Under the pieces are notes generated by a model. The model had not been told where the DNA came from. It was given only the letters and a program-made list of their open reading frames with translations, and made no database searches. The translations under genes were made by a program, and so were the position numbers. Below, piece after piece: positions 4,399-18,620 of a stretch of 64,000 nt of DNA. How positions within the stretch are numbered: position 1 is the first letter of the stretch; each line of letters starts with the position of its first letter. The DNA is from Escherichia coli (lineage in GTDB: Bacteria > Pseudomonadota > Gammaproteobacteria > Enterobacterales > Enterobacteriaceae): NCBI RefSeq assembly GCF_016026235.1, contig NZ_CP065613.1; one strand, 5' to 3'.

Positions 4399-5826
4399 AT
4401 GATGATAAATGTGCAAACTGTGGCAGTGATTGGGAGCGGCACCATGGGGGCTGGCATTGCTGAAGTTGCCGCCAGTCATGGACATCAGGTTTTACTGTAT
4501 GACATTTCTGCTGAAGCGCTGACCCGCGCAATCGACGGGATACACGCGCGGCTAAATTCACGCGTGACGCGGGGAAAACTGACTGCTGAAACCTGTGAAC
4601 GCACATTGAAACGCCTGATCCCGGTGACCGATATTCACGCGCTGGCAGCTGCGGACCTGGTCATTGAAGCGGCGTCTGAACGTCTGGAAGTCAAAAAAGC
4701 GCTCTTTGCACAGCTGGCGGAAGTTTGCCCGCCACAAACGCTATTGACCACTAACACTTCGTCAATCTCTATAACCGCGATTGCTGCGGAGGTAAAAAAT
4801 CCTGAACGTGTTGCGGGGCTGCATTTTTTTAACCCGGCACCGGTGATGAAGTTGGTGGAGGTGGTCAGTGGGCTGGCAACGGCAGCGGAAGTTGTTGAGC
4901 AGTTGTGTGAACTAACGTTGAGTTGGGGTAAGCAGCCTGTGCGCTGTCATTCGACCCCTGGATTTATCGTTAACCGTGTGGCGCGTCCTTATTATTCCGA
5001 GGCCTGGCGGGCACTGGAAGAGCAGGTTGCTGCACCAGAAGTGATTGACGCTGCACTTCGCGATGGCGCTGGTTTCCCGATGGGGCCGCTGGAATTAACC
5101 GATCTGATTGGTCAGGACGTCAATTTTGCTGTCACCTGTTCGGTGTTTAACGCTTTCTGGCAGGAGCGTCGTTTTTTACCTTCGCTGGTGCAACAGGAAC
5201 TGGTGATTGGTGGACGGTTGGGCAAGAAAAGTGGGCTGGGCGTGTACGACTGGCGCGCGGAACGTGAGGCAGTTGTTGGCCTGGAAGCGGTAAGCGACAG
5301 TTTTAGCCCAATGAAAGTAGAAAAGAAAAGTGACGGTGTCACGGAAATTGACGATGTTTTATTGATTGAGACACAAGGCGAGACGGCACAGGCGCTGGCA
5401 ATACGACTGGCACGCCCGGTGGTAGTGGTCGACAAAATGGCGGGCAAGGTGGTGACCATTGCTGCGGCAGCGGTGAACCCGGACTCAGCGACCCGCAAGG
5501 CCATTTATTACCTGCAACAGCAGGGCAAAACAGTGCTGCAAATTGCAGATTACCCAGGAATGCTGATTTGGCGAACGGTAGCAATGATCATCAATGAAGC
5601 CCTTGATGCGCTGCAAAAAGGCGTGGCCTCTGAACAGGATATCGATACCGCCATGCGTCTTGGGGTGAATTATCCATATGGCCCGCTTGCCTGGGGAGCG
5701 CAACTTGGCTGGCAGCGAATATTAAGGCTCCTGGAAAATCTACAATATCACTATGGCGAAGAACGCTATCGCCCATGTTCATTGCTGCGCCAACGAGCGC
5801 TTCTGGAGAGCGGTTATGAGTCATAA
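4399..5826 (+). CDS. paaH: 3-hydroxyadipyl-CoA dehydrogenase
   Basis: ORF 4318..5826; likely start ATG at 4399 (MMINVQTVAVIGSGTMGAGIA, NAD-binding GxGxxG), 475 aa. Confidence 0.9.
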   Translation: MMINVQTVAVIGSGTMGAGIAEVAASHGHQVLLYDISAEALTRAIDGIHARLNSRVTRGKLTAETCERTLKRLIPVTDIHALAAADLVIEAASERLEVKKALFAQLAEVCPPQTLLTTNTSSISITAIAAEVKNPERVAGLHFFNPAPVMKLVEVVSGLATAAEVVEQLCELTLSWGKQPVRCHSTPGFIVNRVARPYYSEAWRALEEQVAAPEVIDAALRDGAGFPMGPLELTDLIGQDVNFAVTCSVFNAFWQERRFLPSLVQQELVIGGRLGKKSGLGVYDWRAEREAVVGLEAVSDSFSPMKVEKKSDGVTEIDDVLLIETQGETAQALAIRLARPVVVVDKMAGKVVTIAAAAVNPDSATRKAIYYLQQQGKTVLQIADYPGMLIWRTVAMIINEALDALQKGVASEQDIDTAMRLGVNYPYGPLAWGAQLGWQRILRLLENLQYHYGEERYRPCSLLRQRALLESGYES

Positions 5827-8883: not shown

Positions 8884-9834
8884 ATGAGTAAACTTGATAC
8901 TTTTATCCAACATGCTGTAAACGCTGTTCCGGTCAGTGGCACATCTTTGATCTCCTCTCTGTATGGTGATTCGCTTTCCCATCGTGGTGGTGAAATCTGG
9001 CTGGGTAGTCTGGCTGCTTTGCTGGAAGGGCTGGGATTTGGTGAGCGTTTCGTGCGCACCGCTTTGTTTCGTCTTAATAAAGAAGGATGGCTGGATGTTT
9101 CCCGCATCGGGCGACGCAGTTTCTATAGCCTCAGTGATAAAGGCTTGCGCCTGACGCGACGGGCAGAAAGTAAAATTTATCGCGCAGAGCAACCTGCATG
9201 GGATGGTAAATGGCTCCTGTTGCTCTCGGAAGGTTTAGATAAATCAACGCTGGCTGATGTCAAAAAGCAGTTGATCTGGCAAGGTTTTGGCGCACTGGCA
9301 CCCAGCCTGATGGCATCGCCGTCGCAAAAACTGGCGGATGTACAGACACTTTTGCATGAAGCGGGGGTGGCGGATAACGTGATTTGTTTTGAAGCGCAAA
9401 TACCACTGGCGCTTTCTCGCGCAGCACTGCGTGCCAGAGTAGAAGAGTGCTGGCATTTAACTGAACAAAATGCCATGTACGAAACCTTTATTCAGTCATT
9501 CCGCCCGCTGGTGCCGCTGTTAAAAGAGGCGGCGGAGGAGTTAACCCCGGAGCGTGCATTTCATATTCAGCTTTTACTGATCCATTTTTATCGCCGTGTC
9601 GTCCTTAAAGATCCATTGTTGCCGGAGGAGTTGCTTCCGGCGCACTGGGCAGGGCATACGGCGCGTCAGCTGTGTATCAACATTTATCAGCGCGTAGCGC
9701 CTGCTGCTTTAGCGTTCGTTAGTGAAAAAGGTGAAACCTCGGTCGGTGAACTGCCTGCGCCGGGAAGCCTGTATTTTCAACGTTTTGGCGGTTTGAATAT
9801 TGAACAGGAGGCATTATGCCAATTTACCAGATAG
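8884..9834 (+). CDS. paaX: Phenylacetyl-CoA-responsive transcriptional repressor of the paa operon
   Basis: 316-aa ORF recognised as PaaX; position after paaK. Confidence 0.9.
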
Positions 9835-10406
9835 ATGGTCTGACTCCGGTTGTGCCAGAAGAGAGTTTTGTCCATCCGACAGCGGTATTGATCGGCGATG
9901 TTATTCTAGGCAAGGGCGTTTACGTTGGGCCAAATGCCAGCCTGCGTGGCGATTTTGGTCGTATCGTGGTGAAAGATGGCGCGAACATTCAGGATAATTG
10001 CGTTATGCACGGTTTTCCCGAGCAGGATACTGTCGTTGAAGAAGATGGGCATATTGGTCATAGCGCTATCCTTCACGGCTGCATTATCCGCCGCAATGCA
10101 TTAGTGGGAATGAACGCGGTAGTGATGGACGGCGCGGTGATTGGCGAGAACAGCATTGTTGGCGCATCCGCATTTGTGAAAGCCAAAGCAGAAATGCCTG
10201 CCAATTACCTGATTGTCGGCAGCCCGGCGAAAGCGATTCGTGAACTCAGTGAGCAGGAGCTGGCATGGAAAAAGCAGGGTACGCATGAGTATCAGGTGCT
10301 GGTGACTCGTTGTAAGCAGACGTTGCATCAAGTTGAGCCATTGCGGGAAGTTGAACCGAACAGGAAACGTCTGGTATTTGATGAGAATCTGCGACCGAAA
10401 CAGTAA
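9816..10406 (+). CDS. paaY: Hexapeptide-repeat (left-handed beta-helix) thioesterase / acyltransferase
   Basis: 196-aa ORF recognised as PaaY; overlaps the paaX 3' end. Confidence 0.9.
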
Positions 10407-10450
10407 CGTCCAGATACTGAACATTCTAATTTTTAGCATGTGATACCTAA

Positions 10451-10483
10451 ACCGCAACGCTGATACAGGTTGCGGTTTTTTTA
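10451..10483 (+). terminator. Rho-independent terminator after paaY
   Basis: CCGCAAC...GTTGCGG stem followed by a T7 run, about 45 nt after the paaY stop. Confidence 0.6.
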
Positions 10484-10637
10484 TTGCCGGATGCGGCGCT
10501 TTACGCGTTTTGTTTTGGTGTCTTTCAGGACAATAGAGCAACTCATCCAGTAATCTTGTTTACACCTTCGCATTATTTATCTCTTTTCATTTCTATACTG
10601 ATTTTTCTTAATCCGTTTTATTACAGGGCAGGGTGCG

Positions 10638-11498
10638 ATGAGCAGCAATACATTTACTCTCGGTACAAAATCCGTTAACCGTCTTGGTTATGGCGCGATG
10701 CAACTGGCAGGTCCTGGGGTTTTTGGCCCCCCAAGAGATCGCCACGTCGCTATAACTGTGCTGCGTGAGGCGCTGGCATTGGGCGTCACTCACATTGATA
10801 CCAGCGACTTTTATGGTCCGCACGTCACCAATCAGATTATCCGCGAAGCGCTTTATCCTTACTCTGACGACCTGACAATTGTCACTAAAATTGGTGCGCG
10901 GCGTGGAGAGGACGCTTCCTGGTTGCCCGCCTTTTCTCCGGCAGAGTTGCAAAAAGCGGTGCACGATAATCTACGTAATCTCGGCCTGGACGTACTGGAT
11001 GTGGTTAACCTGCGCGTTATGATGGGGGATGGTCATGGCCCAGCGGAAGGATCGATTGAGGCCAGCCTGACCGTGCTGGCAGAGATGCAACAACAAGGCC
11101 TGGTAAAACATATTGGCCTGAGCAACGTCACACCGACGCAGGTTGCAGAGGCGCGCAAGATTGCCGAAATTGTCTGTGTGCAAAACGAATACAACATCGC
11201 GCACCGTGCTGATGATGCAATGATTGATGCTTTGGCCCACGATGGCATTGCCTACGTGCCGTTCTTCCCGCTCGGGGGCTTTACACCGCTGCAATCGTCC
11301 ACACTTTCCGATGTTGCTGCGAGCCTGGGTGCAACACCCATGCAGGTGGCGCTGGCGTGGCTGTTACAACGTTCACCGAATATTTTGCTGATCCCAGGGA
11401 CGTCTTCTGTTGCGCATTTACGGGAGAATATGGCTGCTGAAAAATTGCATCTTTCTGAGGAAGTGTTGTCTACGTTGGATGGTATTTCGCGAGAATAA
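10638..11498 (+). CDS. ydbC: Aldo-keto reductase family oxidoreductase
   Basis: 286-aa ORF recognised as AKR-fold YdbC. Confidence 0.85.
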   Translation: MSSNTFTLGTKSVNRLGYGAMQLAGPGVFGPPRDRHVAITVLREALALGVTHIDTSDFYGPHVTNQIIREALYPYSDDLTIVTKIGARRGEDASWLPAFSPAELQKAVHDNLRNLGLDVLDVVNLRVMMGDGHGPAEGSIEASLTVLAEMQQQGLVKHIGLSNVTPTQVAEARKIAEIVCVQNEYNIAHRADDAMIDALAHDGIAYVPFFPLGGFTPLQSSTLSDVAASLGATPMQVALAWLLQRSPNILLIPGTSSVAHLRENMAAEKLHLSEEVLSTLDGISRE

Positions 11499-11507
11499 CG
11501 AATATAC

Positions 11508-11546
11508 AAAAGGGAAAGATGCATTTCCCTTTTGTTTCTTTTTTAA
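11508..11546 (+). terminator. Rho-independent terminator after ydbC
   Basis: AGGGAAA...TTTCCCT stem followed by a T-rich tract. Confidence 0.55.
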
Positions 11547-11561
11547 TGGCATGGAGTGCAT

Positions 11562-13868
11562 ATGTTTAAGGCCAGGATTTGCGGCTGGATAGGTTTACTT
11601 CCCCTGTTTATGCTGAGTCTTCCAGTACAGGCGGAACTTCGATGTGTTGCAAATACAGTTGATATTGAACCATTTTTTTCTGCGGCTACCGCTGAAGATA
11701 AACAACAAGTTGAACAAGCTATCAACAGTAGCGTGAATCTTGTCCCCTTCGGTTTATCTGCATCGGACTGGAAAGTGCATCGTGGCGATTTAGTGGTAGA
11801 AGGTAATATAGAGAGTAATCAAAAATTGATTGTTCTTGGTAATTTGACAGTCAAAGGTAATATTTCCACTTTCTCTCTTTCTAATCCATGGGTTATTCTC
11901 GGTAACGTGACGGCAACGAATATAGTTACGGATTCACCACTGTTAATTACCGGTTCGATAAATGCAAGTGGACTGGTATTTATCGACTCATATTACGATA
12001 ATCCGTCTACGATTAAGGGGAGTATTAATGCGCGTGGGATATTTATCAATGACATAATTGCACCTGTTGTTGCGTCTTCGACAAATAGTGAATTCATGGT
12101 CCGTGCGAGTGACAAAAATGACACTGAAAATGTCAAAAAAGCGCTGATGATAATAAATCCTGATGCATATTATTGGGGTCTAATAAATGATGAAGATGCT
12201 CTGAAAGAAATTTTTAAGCGAAGCAATATTCGCATGGCAGGGAATGTCTGTAATCAGATGAAAAAAAAAGCGCTGTTTCGCCCTAAGCCTTCTCCTGAGT
12301 TAGTGCAGGAATTGCAAATGCTGGATGAAGGCAACGTTGCTGCATTTGAAGGACGAGATATTGCGACATTTGATCTTGCCATAATGCGAACTCTCCCAAG
12401 GCTTAAAGGAATTTCAGCTAACCTACGCAAACAACTTATTAATAGCAATGATGAACAAACGATTGAAAGTATGGCGAGATATATGCCTGACAATGAGATT
12501 CTGGAGTTGACCGATCAGCAATTGGGTTACCAGCCTGTTGTTCTGGGGTTGCTCGACCGTGAACCGCTCTCTGTCGAAATAATGACGCGAATGAGTCGTC
12601 TACCTGATGGTGTCGGTCCGTTGAATCTTGCGCTACGTGAAAATCTCCCTCTGGATATCGTAATGACTCTGGCGAAAAGAGATTGGGATATGATCATTCA
12701 GGAGCTTTATAAAGATGCGTGGTTATTGCCTGAACCCATTATTGATGGCTATATCCGCAGTGATGATTCATCTATTCGTCAGGTCGGTGCTGGAGGACAA
12801 CTCACCTACAATCAGGCAATGCAGTTGGCGAACGATTCATCAAACAATGTTGTCACAAGCTTAGCGTTCAAGCTGGCAGAGATGAAACACCATGGTCAAT
12901 TATTGCGGATGACGCCACAAGAGAGTGACAAAGTTGCAGCCTATTTATACCAAAAATTCGAGAATGACGATGATCTAATACGTGTGTTATTTTTAGCATT
13001 GCCAGATAACTTACAGTTTAATTTTGTTAAAAGGATGAAGAAAAAATCCCCTGCCTACTTTTGCTGTCGGGATATGCAGGTAATTCACTCTGACGCTGCT
13101 CTACAACGGTTATTGACACGTTTCAACGATCCTGAGGGGTGGAGTAATCTGGCGAAAAATCAGTATCTGAGCACATCGATGAAACAAAAAATTTGGCAAC
13201 GTGCTTTATCGCATCGGAAAAATAATCCGAAAGCAGATTCAGCTGCGTATGAAACCAGCGCTGATATGATTTTGTCTGAGCTTATCAGCCACGGTGAAGT
13301 TGATGATCAGATGCTATTAAATGCCACCGCCCTGATACGTTTGGAAGACTGGGACTTTTTAGAGAGTGCATTAGTTAGTTGGGATAATTTACCCGCTGTT
13401 GTCCTCAAGGAATTACAGCAAAATACGCCACGCAATGATATTTGGGCGAAGTTTTTTCTGAGGCAGGAAAACAGCTCCCGTGCGCAGGTTGATGAAGCAT
13501 TACGCGTCTATTATGCACTCGACCCCGATGCGTTAGCACAACTGGATGTACTGGCAAAACAACCGGATCGTATATGGTGGAGTACACTGGCGAAAAGCAA
13601 TCTCACATTTTTCAAGTTCGGCGCACTTAACAACCGCCACACATCGCCTGCAGTACTGGCGGCAGAAATTGATCCCGAGTGGTGGATTGTGGCGATGAAT
13701 AATCCCCGTTTTCCAGTTGATGTATTAAAGGCGAGGCTGAAACGTGATCCTTTGCTGGCGTTAGAGCTTGTTAACCCTGAACTGGATTTAGTCCGCCAGC
13801 TGGCGCTTAACGGTAAGACGCGCGCAATACGGGAACAAGCGATGAGAAAACTTGATGAGTTGTATTGA
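11562..13868 (+). CDS. ydbD: Large secreted protein of unknown function, N-terminal signal peptide
   Basis: ORF 11556..13868 (track start GTG); ATG at 11562 (MFKARICGWIGLLPLFMLSLPVQA|ELR, signal-peptide-like). Recognised as YdbD. Confidence 0.85.
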   Translation: MFKARICGWIGLLPLFMLSLPVQAELRCVANTVDIEPFFSAATAEDKQQVEQAINSSVNLVPFGLSASDWKVHRGDLVVEGNIESNQKLIVLGNLTVKGNISTFSLSNPWVILGNVTATNIVTDSPLLITGSINASGLVFIDSYYDNPSTIKGSINARGIFINDIIAPVVASSTNSEFMVRASDKNDTENVKKALMIINPDAYYWGLINDEDALKEIFKRSNIRMAGNVCNQMKKKALFRPKPSPELVQELQMLDEGNVAAFEGRDIATFDLAIMRTLPRLKGISANLRKQLINSNDEQTIESMARYMPDNEILELTDQQLGYQPVVLGLLDREPLSVEIMTRMSRLPDGVGPLNLALRENLPLDIVMTLAKRDWDMIIQELYKDAWLLPEPIIDGYIRSDDSSIRQVGAGGQLTYNQAMQLANDSSNNVVTSLAFKLAEMKHHGQLLRMTPQESDKVAAYLYQKFENDDDLIRVLFLALPDNLQFNFVKRMKKKSPAYFCCRDMQVIHSDAALQRLLTRFNDPEGWSNLAKNQYLSTSMKQKIWQRALSHRKNNPKADSAAYETSADMILSELISHGEVDDQMLLNATALIRLEDWDFLESALVSWDNLPAVVLKELQQNTPRNDIWAKFFLRQENSSRAQVDEALRVYYALDPDALAQLDVLAKQPDRIWWSTLAKSNLTFFKFGALNNRHTSPAVLAAEIDPEWWIVAMNNPRFPVDVLKARLKRDPLLALELVNPELDLVRQLALNGKTRAIREQAMRKLDELY

Positions 13869-13937: not shown

Positions 13938-14038
13938 ACCTTGATATATTCTGAATTTTTAATGAGGCGGCGTGTTGCGATATCTCCGTCAGGGGAATTG
14001 ATGCACCATAGCGCAAACCGAATTATCAAGGATTGATA

Positions 14039-14644
14039 ATGACGCTCTACCAGATAAAACCGCTCTTTCAGTCGCTGTTAAGGCCGACGATGTTTTGGCT
14101 TTATAAGCACCACGTTACAGCGAATCACATCACTCTTGCTGCACTGGCGCTTTCTCTTCTTACCGGTTTGCTGTTGATGTTGATGTCACAACCCATCCTC
14201 TTTATGCTATTGCCCATCGTGCTTTTTATCCGTATGGCGCTCAATGCGCTTGATGGCATGTTGGCGCGTGAGTGCAACCAGCAAACACGTCTGGGGGCGA
14301 TTTTGAATGAGACTGGCGATGTTATTTCCGATATTGCGCTCTATTTACCGTTTTTATTTTTACCGGAAAGTAACGCATCACTCGTAATACTCATGTTATT
14401 TTGCACCATATTGACTGAGTTTTGCGGTTTACTCGCGCAGACGATTAACGGTATTCGCAGTTATGCCGGTCCATTCGGCAAAAGCGATCGTGCGTTAATA
14501 TTTGGTTTGTGGGGGCTGGCCGTTGCCATTTATCCACAGTGGATGCAATGGAATAATCTTTTATGGAGCATTGCTTCAATTCTGCTTCTCTGGACTGCGA
14601 TTAATCGTTGTCGGAGTGTGCTTTTTATGAGTGCTGAAAGATAA
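14039..14644 (+). CDS. ynbA: CDP-alcohol phosphatidyltransferase family membrane protein
   Basis: ORF 14033..14644; ATG at 14039 (MTLYQIKPLF...), polytopic; recognised as YnbA. Confidence 0.85.
   Translation: MTLYQIKPLFQSLLRPTMFWLYKHHVTANHITLAALALSLLTGLLLMLMSQPILFMLLPIVLFIRMALNALDGMLARECNQQTRLGAILNETGDVISDIALYLPFLFLPESNASLVILMLFCTILTEFCGLLAQTINGIRSYAGPFGKSDRALIFGLWGLAVAIYPQWMQWNNLLWSIASILLLWTAINRCRSVLFMSAER

Positions 14645-15555: not shown

Positions 15556-18620
<3,065 letters not shown>

Follow-up and report, generated by a model that had tools for sequence, protein, structure and literature searches.

The adjacency of paaY and pdxI (formerly ydbC) in the E. coli genome examined here is very probably the scar left when a single deletion, long ago, removed chromosomal DNA in the E. 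coli lineage. An initial annotation of the 64-kb stretch of DNA that we analyzed, hereafter the window, had reported that paaY is followed directly by ydbC and ydbD with ydbA absent, and that a clean terminator lies in the intervening gap; the ORF listing and sequence bore out the former, and folding of the gap the latter. That annotation had left ancestral absence or deletion to be settled by a synteny comparison. We carried out this comparison and its outcome was deletion: a remnant of the ydbA 3' end persists at the site, ydbA occupies the same position in Pseudocitrobacter faecalis, and the junction is identical across strains, so the absence of ydbA is a loss rather than the ancestral state.

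Table 1. Features of the paaY-ydbD interval, in window coordinates.
Feature	Position	Strand	Description	Source
paaY	9816..10406	+	Last gene of paaXY unit; stop TAA 10404-10406	ORF listing
paaY-pdxI gap	10407-10637		231 bp	ORF listing and sequence
Left junction edge	10407..10411	+	C (10407) common to ydbA+ genomes; GTCC (10408-10411), 4 nt of uncertain origin	
ydbA 3'-end remnant	10412..10429	+	~18 nt; AGATACTGAAC-A-TTCTAA	
Former ydbA-pdxI spacer	10430..10637	+	208 nt, colinear with ydbA+ genomes	
Predicted Rho-independent terminator	10449..10482	+	Hairpin AAACCGCAAC...GTTGCGGTTT (10449-10478) and T-run to 10482	
pdxI (formerly ydbC)	10638..11498	+	NADPH-dependent pyridoxal reductase, aldo-keto reductase family	
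Terminator-like hairpin, pdxI-ydbD interval	11506..11535	+	12 bp	Consensus terminator scan
ydbD	11562..13868	+	Intact, 768 aa	

The initial annotation placed an IS-disrupted ydbA between paaY and ydbC in K-12, and did so correctly: the order in MG1655 (NC_000913.3) is paaY(b1400)-ynbG(b4674)-ydbA(b4492)-pdxI(b1406)-ydbD(b1407), where ydbA is already a pseudogene in three fragments with IS2D and IS30C. The window and K-12 align as far as the first base beyond the paaY stop codon (position 5059 of the K-12 locus, L002), and alignment resumes at L002 position 14001, nine bases short of where the ydbA coding sequence ends, with window positions 10420-10700 aligning to 14001-14280 at 96.8%. The PaaY protein scores 377.5 bits against the TIGR02287 equivalog model (cut-off 319.6), and its gene shares 96.3% nucleotide identity with K-12 paaY. 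Searches of the window by tblastn with an intact 2820-aa YdbA and by blastn with the K-12 insert gave no match, and no ydbA, IS2 or IS30 sequence was found in the rest of the 64 kb. The window thus has no YdbA/BigA autotransporter gene, which we define as one encoding BigA_N and BigA_beta together with a beta-barrel at the C-terminus.

What is left of ydbA lies within the gap. The junction reads ...CAGTAA-C-GTCC-AGATACTGAAC-A-TTCTAA-TTTTTAGC..., compared with ...GGCGTGATGCTGAACTTCAAGAAAACGTTCTAA-TTTTTAGC... at the end of K-12 ydbA. Homology to K-12 downstream of paaY ends after TAAC, and the GTCC that follows is present in 4/4 empty-site haplotypes read. The remnant corresponds to ydbA TGATGCTGAAC[TTCAAGAAAAC]GTTCTAA minus the bracketed 11 nt, and its TTCTAA (10424-10429) comprises the last ydbA codon (Phe) and the stop codon. 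Divergent empty alleles retain GATGCTGAACGTTCTAA; those at L086-L088 read GATGCTG(A/G)ACGT(T/G)CTAA, nearer to ydbA than the sequence in the window. By our own calculation, an 11-nt exact match at the position of the remnant has a chance probability of ~4e-5. The window therefore carries what we define as the ΔydbA allele, consisting of TAA-C-GTCC, the gapped remnant, TTCTAA and the ydbA terminator. The initial annotation had taken ydbA remnants in the gap to be incompatible with its claim of absence; the 18-nt remnant, stop codon, terminator and spacer are all there, yet the gene itself is gone, and the claim is refined rather than overturned.

The deletion begins a single base beyond the paaY stop codon and reaches to ~30 nt short of that of ydbA, a length of ~8.8 kb against intact alleles or ~8.9 kb against K-12, where two IS elements add to the span. 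It removed the paaY terminator native to the locus, the small gene ynbG, the promoter of ydbA and nearly all of the giant YdbA/BigA-family autotransporter gene. Of ydbA, ~18 nt at the 3' end are left, together with the stop codon, the terminator and the spacer before pdxI, whose upstream region is unchanged. The remnant has a further 11-nt deletion, with AAC repeats on both sides. The deletion event may have come about by a RecA-independent illegitimate or slippage mechanism. A search for microhomology at the main breakpoints gave no clear case; the candidates GATG and TAA were rejected, as neither gives the observed junction and GTCC is left over. The GTCC at 10408-10411 resembles neither flank convincingly, a feature that we counted against a single deletion.

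As a consequence of the deletion, the paaXY transcript is predicted to end at the former ydbA terminator. Positions 10430-10495 fold at -24 kcal/mol (z=-4.1, 0/200 shuffles as good), a stable G+C-rich hairpin is followed by a U-run as expected for Rho-independent termination, and the same hairpin sequence lies 3' of the ydbA stop codon in L002-L005. By sequence, this predicted element is the ydbA terminator of ydbA+ strains and, in the window, the first terminator downstream of paaY. The consensus terminator scan missed the hairpin because its loop is above the 8-nt limit of the scan. The native paaY terminator hairpin of K-12 (-18.5 kcal/mol, z=-4.45) lies inside the deleted segment.

The 84-bp junction was found in 2043/5426 complete E. 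coli genomes (~38%) at 92.9-100% identity; top-ranked matches were 100% identical to the query, and the alignment was ungapped in 19/19 full-length rows of a spread sample. As more than one third of sequenced E. coli carry the same scar, the absence of ydbA from the window is real but ordinary. The polymorphism is common and has already been described, the paa-ydbA-ynb region being a known zone of gene-content heterogeneity (PMC4951805); our literature search found no mechanistic study. Comparison of nine flank sequences revealed that the empty-site junction sits on divergent flanking haplotypes, the pdxI region of the window being 98.0% identical to that of ydbA+ K-12 and 94.9% and 96.0% identical to those of two other empty genomes. 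The shared junction marks ΔydbA as a widespread allele of single origin, and from the flank comparison we infer that it would be old and spread by homologous recombination. Whether such a presence/absence polymorphism, moved by homologous recombination, persists across E. coli phylogroups through balancing or frequency-dependent selection on the giant surface adhesin is a more speculative proposal, which we consider doubtful. Selection might act on the adhesin as, for example, a phage receptor or immune target. Two observations fit this proposal: the surviving ydbA alleles are extremely divergent (60-100% nucleotide identity), and ydbA has been inactivated several times independently, through IS insertion or splitting.

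Since the empty-site flanking haplotypes are not mutual closest relatives, they could also reflect independent deletions, with the empty state arising many times across phylogroups. However, flank recombination accounts for the haplotype pattern, and all sampled empty genomes carry one composite junction (TAAC, GTCC and remnant, with the same 11-nt gap) with zero length variation in 84 bp. Independent repetition of such a junction is very unlikely, and we therefore regard recurrent deletion as highly improbable.

The empty paaY-pdxI site would be the original state if ydbA, together with ynbG, had been inserted in carrier lineages, as the lack of ydbA beside pdxI in E. albertii and the heterogeneity of the region (PMC4951805) might suggest. 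Had ydbA been inserted, however, sequence already at the site would have had to supply its final codon, stop codon and terminator, and the empty site would need a chance 11-nt match to ydbA sequence 21 nt upstream of the stop codon. No mobile-element ends flank ydbA, and the nucleotide divergence among its alleles at the site, up to 20-40%, points to a gene long established there. The order paaY-ydbA-pdxI is moreover common to Pseudocitrobacter: in P. faecalis, paaK-paaX-paaY is followed by an intact ydbA homologue of 1982 aa, and this in turn by pdxI and hrpA. The order ydbA-pdxI also occurs on a divergent Escherichia contig (L007). These loci come from a scan of genome contigs anchored on PdxI that yielded at least four useful enterobacterial loci among the matches listed, with E. 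fergusonii, the cryptic Escherichia clades and Shigella outside it; the matches listed were mostly alpha- and beta-proteobacterial aldo-keto reductases, 72-79% identical. In light of the remnant, ancestral absence is largely refuted and hardly credible. Collapse or loss of a repeat-rich ydbA during assembly is a negligible possibility, for although ydbA has long internal repeats (multiple self-matching segments by tblastn) that are difficult with short reads, the junction is shared by 2043 closed genomes, independent NCBI assemblies contain exactly this locus as well, and collapse would not yield the specific 11-nt gap and GTCC junction.

The gene downstream of the scar, initially annotated as an aldo-keto reductase, does belong to that family (Aldo_ket_red, E=4.8e-50; NF007695, 557 bits vs 280), but the label is outdated: a passage of PMC9997740 citing Ito and Downs 2020 identifies ydbC as encoding the K-12 enzyme PdxI, a pyridoxal reductase that converts pyridoxal to pyridoxine in an NADPH-dependent manner. 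With 98% nucleotide identity and the same position, pdxI of the window qualifies by sequence as the orthologue of b1406. The description of ydbD as encoding a 768-aa signal-peptide protein agrees with the length of the ORF from its ATG (770 aa if translation began at the GTG two codons earlier) and with the N-terminus, MFKARICGWIGLLPLFMLSLPVQA|E, in which n, h and c regions are arranged as in a Sec signal peptide (predicted, aa 1-24); signal peptides are also predicted in ~25/35 YdbD family members. DUF2773 (PF10971) matches aa 688-768 (E=1.3e-44, 150.7 bits vs a gathering cut-off of 25), and no NCBIfam model matches YdbD. The structure prediction proposed in the initial annotation gave a confident model (pLDDT 88, pTM 0.76) with a beta-helix at aa 70-181 followed by an LRV/HEAT-like alpha-solenoid at aa 188-768 that ends in DUF2773. 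A fold search of full-length YdbD against the PDB turned up nothing beyond generic HEAT/armadillo matches (TM 0.1-0.27), none of which hinted at a function. YdbD is an uncharacterised and probably periplasmic protein.

The RefSeq label 'bactofilin' for YdbD is weakly founded, as the match to PF04519 is sub-threshold (21.1 bits vs a gathering cut-off of 27.9) and occurs in only 3/19 family members. Among the bactofilin structures compared with the N-terminal domain (BacA 2n3d and T. thermophilus 6ria), BacA gave E=0.22. The signal peptide predicted in YdbD and its relatives argues against a cytoplasmic cytoskeletal role. Because three remote YdbD homologues share neighbours neither with one another nor with E. 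coli, gene neighbourhoods lend no support to linking ydbD functionally with pdxI or ynbABCD. The gene ydbD itself belongs to the accessory genome, and in other strains it is frequently a pseudogene.

Taken together, these results have little import beyond the correct annotation of a strain that lacks the gene for a giant surface adhesin, a gene that is frequently defunct already. They do make the polarity of the polymorphism clear: it is a deletion, recognisable by its scar, which would exchange the paaY terminator for that of ydbA and drop ynbG. Two y-genes can be updated, ydbC to PdxI and YdbD, as modelled, to a probably periplasmic beta-helix and alpha-solenoid protein.

Compared with K-12 MG1655, the window agrees in the identity, order and orientation of the flanking genes and in the ydbA stop codon, terminator and spacer that precede pdxI, with 98.0% identity over pdxI and its 214 upstream bases, but lacks ~8.9 kb comprising the native paaY terminator, ynbG, the ydbA fragments, IS2 and IS30. 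Other ΔydbA E. coli, such as O121 RM8352, O111:H8 and E2865, have a junction identical to that of the window, although in RM8352 ydbD is frameshifted and IS600 lies between pdxI and ydbD, whereas ydbD of the window is intact. E. albertii (ydbL-pdxI-ydbD) resembles the window in that pdxI adjoins ydbD without ydbA, but it has no paa genes, ydbA terminator or remnant and shares with E. coli only ~50 nt upstream of pdxI; its arrangement is a different event or has a different history. We counted this locus against a single deletion with respect to polarity at the genus level. The family once present at the site is that of the YdbA/BigA giant autotransporter-like surface proteins (BigA_N, PF25784; BigA_beta, PF25783), of which intact E. 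coli YdbA alleles encode 2820-2838 aa with both domains, while the window keeps only 18 nt of the 3' end.

The initial annotation had placed paaY, ydbC and ydbD in direct succession, with a 231-bp spacer between the first two, and this order is borne out by the ORF table and the raw sequence. RefSeq now names the aldo-keto reductase gene pdxI, of which ydbC is an older name; PdxI is the pyridoxal reductase that works with NADPH in the salvage of vitamin B6 (PMC9997740, citing Ito and Downs 2020). Profile searches matched PaaY to TIGR02287 (377.5 bits versus a cut-off of 319.6), the pdxI product to Aldo_ket_red (E = 4.8e-50) and NF007695 (557 bits versus a cut-off of 280), and residues 688-768 of YdbD to DUF2773 (E = 1.3e-44). 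The 768-residue length noted for YdbD and its aldo-keto reductase neighbour both hold.

Features of the paaY-ynbC region in the window
Feature	Coordinates	Basis
paaY	9816-10406	ORF table and raw sequence
paaY-pdxI gap, 231 bp	10407-10637	ORF table and raw sequence
Hairpin in the gap (following T-run to 10482)	10449-10478	
REP-like fragment, degenerate	10484-10512	
pdxI, aldo-keto reductase gene	10638-11498	ORF table and raw sequence
ydbD, 768 aa from ATG (770 aa from an alternative GTG two codons upstream)	11562-13868	ORF table and raw sequence
ynbA	start at 14033	ORF table and raw sequence
ynbC, two overlapping ORFs (246 and 357 aa)	15556-17314	

One extra base, a T near 16290 that the 585-aa K-12 gene lacks, splits ynbC, which is thus either a pseudogene with a frameshift or the product of an error in sequencing; the same split is called in an independent NCBI assembly belonging to this sequence type. 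The window's lineage is poorly represented among closed genomes: of 5426 complete E. coli genomes, none matches positions 1-25000 at more than 98.7% over the 25 kb. Proteins identical to the window's YdbD occur in several NCBI assemblies (GCA_001907395.1, GCA_031665325.1).

As the initial annotation stated, MG1655 (NC_000913.3) carries an IS-disrupted ydbA (b4492; split into three fragments by IS2D and IS30C) between paaY (b1400) and pdxI (b1406), together with the 21-codon ynbG (b4674), and both are absent from the window. The alignment with K-12 ends one base past the paaY stop and resumes nine bases before the end of the ydbA coding sequence, while the intervening 8.9 kb of K-12 has no DNA or protein match anywhere within the 64 kb. 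The absence of the gene therefore stands, but a remnant of its 3' end does lie within the spacer. The window junction reads CAGTAA-C-GTCC-AGATACTGAAC-A-TTCTAA-TTTTTAGC, versus ...GTGATGCTGAAC-TTCAAGAAAAC-GTTCTAA-TTTTTAGC at the ydbA 3' end in all genomes retaining the gene, and an 11-nt exact match to ydbA at the junction would arise by chance with a probability of ~4e-5 by our own estimate. The scar keeps the final codon of ydbA, which encodes the C-terminal Phe, along with the stop, the terminator and all 208 nt of the spacer between ydbA and pdxI. In empty-site genomes that are more divergent, the sequence is GTCC(A/T)GATGCTG(A/G)ACGT(T/G)CTAA, which is the ydbA 3' end without 11 nt that are bounded by AAC repeats.

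On whether the arrangement is ancestral or derived, the adjacency of paaY and pdxI in the window is a deletion with a scar, because the junction holds this remnant, the outgroup has the order with ydbA, and ydbA is old at the site. In Pseudocitrobacter faecalis, paaK-paaX-paaY is separated from pdxI and hrpA by an intact ydbA homologue of 1982 aa, and a divergent Escherichia contig has the order ydbA-pdxI. Nucleotide identity in the barrel region of ydbA ranges from 60 to 100% in at least 2538 genomes, which marks the gene as a long-standing resident of the paaY-pdxI site. E. albertii has ydbL-pdxI-ydbD, without paa genes, ydbA or its terminator, and shares only ~50 nt upstream of pdxI with E. 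coli; that species reflects a different event, and polarity for the genus as a whole is not fixed by it. The deletion presumably arose by RecA-independent illegitimate recombination, although the four junction bases GTCC match neither flank. In one comparison locus, an intact 2820-aa YdbA (L004, 3548-12010) in which Pfam finds BigA_N and BigA_beta is labelled 'EntS/YbdA MFS transporter' by RefSeq, evidently an annotation error from a mix-up of ydbA and ybdA.

The terminator described in the spacer was confirmed as a hairpin followed by a T-run, with 10430-10495 folding at -24 kcal/mol (z = -4.1); a simple terminator scan missed it owing only to its loop-length limit. The deletion removed ynbG, the ydbA promoter, ydbA itself and the native paaY terminator (hairpin -18.5 kcal/mol, z = -4.45). 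The first terminator after paaY is now the former ydbA terminator, 43 nt past the paaY stop, and the region upstream of pdxI is unchanged; from this we infer that paaY would be served by the ex-ydbA terminator. Just past it lies the REP-like fragment (GCCGGATGCGGCGCTTTACGCG), and full inverted REP pairs occupy the equivalent place in the divergent Escherichia contig and Pseudocitrobacter.

Close homologues of YdbD occur only in E. coli and E. albertii, and an exhaustive HMMER search gave ~30 full-length relatives (750-820 aa, 20-31% identity). The structure prediction called for earlier, an AlphaFold model built with an alignment of these relatives (pLDDT 88, pTM 0.76), has a disordered signal-like N-terminal segment, a beta-helix (residues 70-181) and an alpha-solenoid (188-768). 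The signal peptide holds as a prediction, with ~25 of 35 family members having a similar N-terminus. LRV, LRV_2 and HEAT repeats are recognised in remote members, a fold search with the whole protein yielded generic HEAT/armadillo solenoids, and neighbourhoods of remote homologues have no conserved gene content. The RefSeq name 'bactofilin' is weakly founded (Pfam Bactofilin, 21.1 bits versus a cut-off of 27.9; BacA in the PDB, E = 0.22). Our tentative best guess is that YdbD is exported and acts in the envelope as a scaffold or binding protein.

The ydbD gene is accessory and decaying across E. coli, and only 3990 of 5426 genomes carry it. Among the loci read (the window, L001, L004, L005 and the divergent empty alleles L086-L088), it is intact in the window, disrupted in four (frameshifted with IS600 upstream in O121 RM8352; an internal stop in N96; truncated with IS1 adjoining in D72; in G12, an IS200 immediately upstream of a copy that has frameshifts and an internal stop) and absent from two strains that retain ydbA. 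Because P. faecalis and E. coli 4/4 have pdxI without ydbD or ynbABCD ahead of hrpA, the ydbD-ynbABCD block between pdxI and azoR may be either an insertion specific to Escherichia or a segment that has been lost repeatedly; azoR is annotated between pdxI and hrpA in strain 4/4, and was not confirmed in Pseudocitrobacter. PdxI shares 72-79% protein identity with aldo-keto reductases of Mesorhizobium, Burkholderia, Corallococcus and others, and within E. coli pdxI, taken together with the 214 bases upstream of it, shows nucleotide differences of up to 9%. Such unusual conservation across phyla and diversity within the species suggest horizontal exchange.

The scar is present in ~38% of complete E. 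coli genomes: an 84-bp junction query, counted at >= 80% of its length, matched 2043 of 5426 (92.9-100% identity), with no gaps in 19 of 19 full-length rows of a spread sample, and a 1683-bp paaY-pdxI query was contiguous in 2034. All four empty-site haplotypes read have the same composite junction, which argues for a single origin of the deletion. The flanks are not monophyletic; across the pdxI region, the identity of the window to K-12, which retains ydbA, is 98.0%, versus only 94.9% and 96.0% to two other empty-site genomes, one of which, G12, has also lost most of the paa operon. From this handful of sequences, as distinct from a genome phylogeny, we infer that the deletion allele is old and that homologous recombination has reshuffled it. 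The paaY-pdxI locus has already been described as a region of genomic heterogeneity, with full-length ydbA reported in ~42% of phylogroup A genomes (PMC4951805), and the absence of ydbA is an ordinary, already known strain-to-strain polymorphism.
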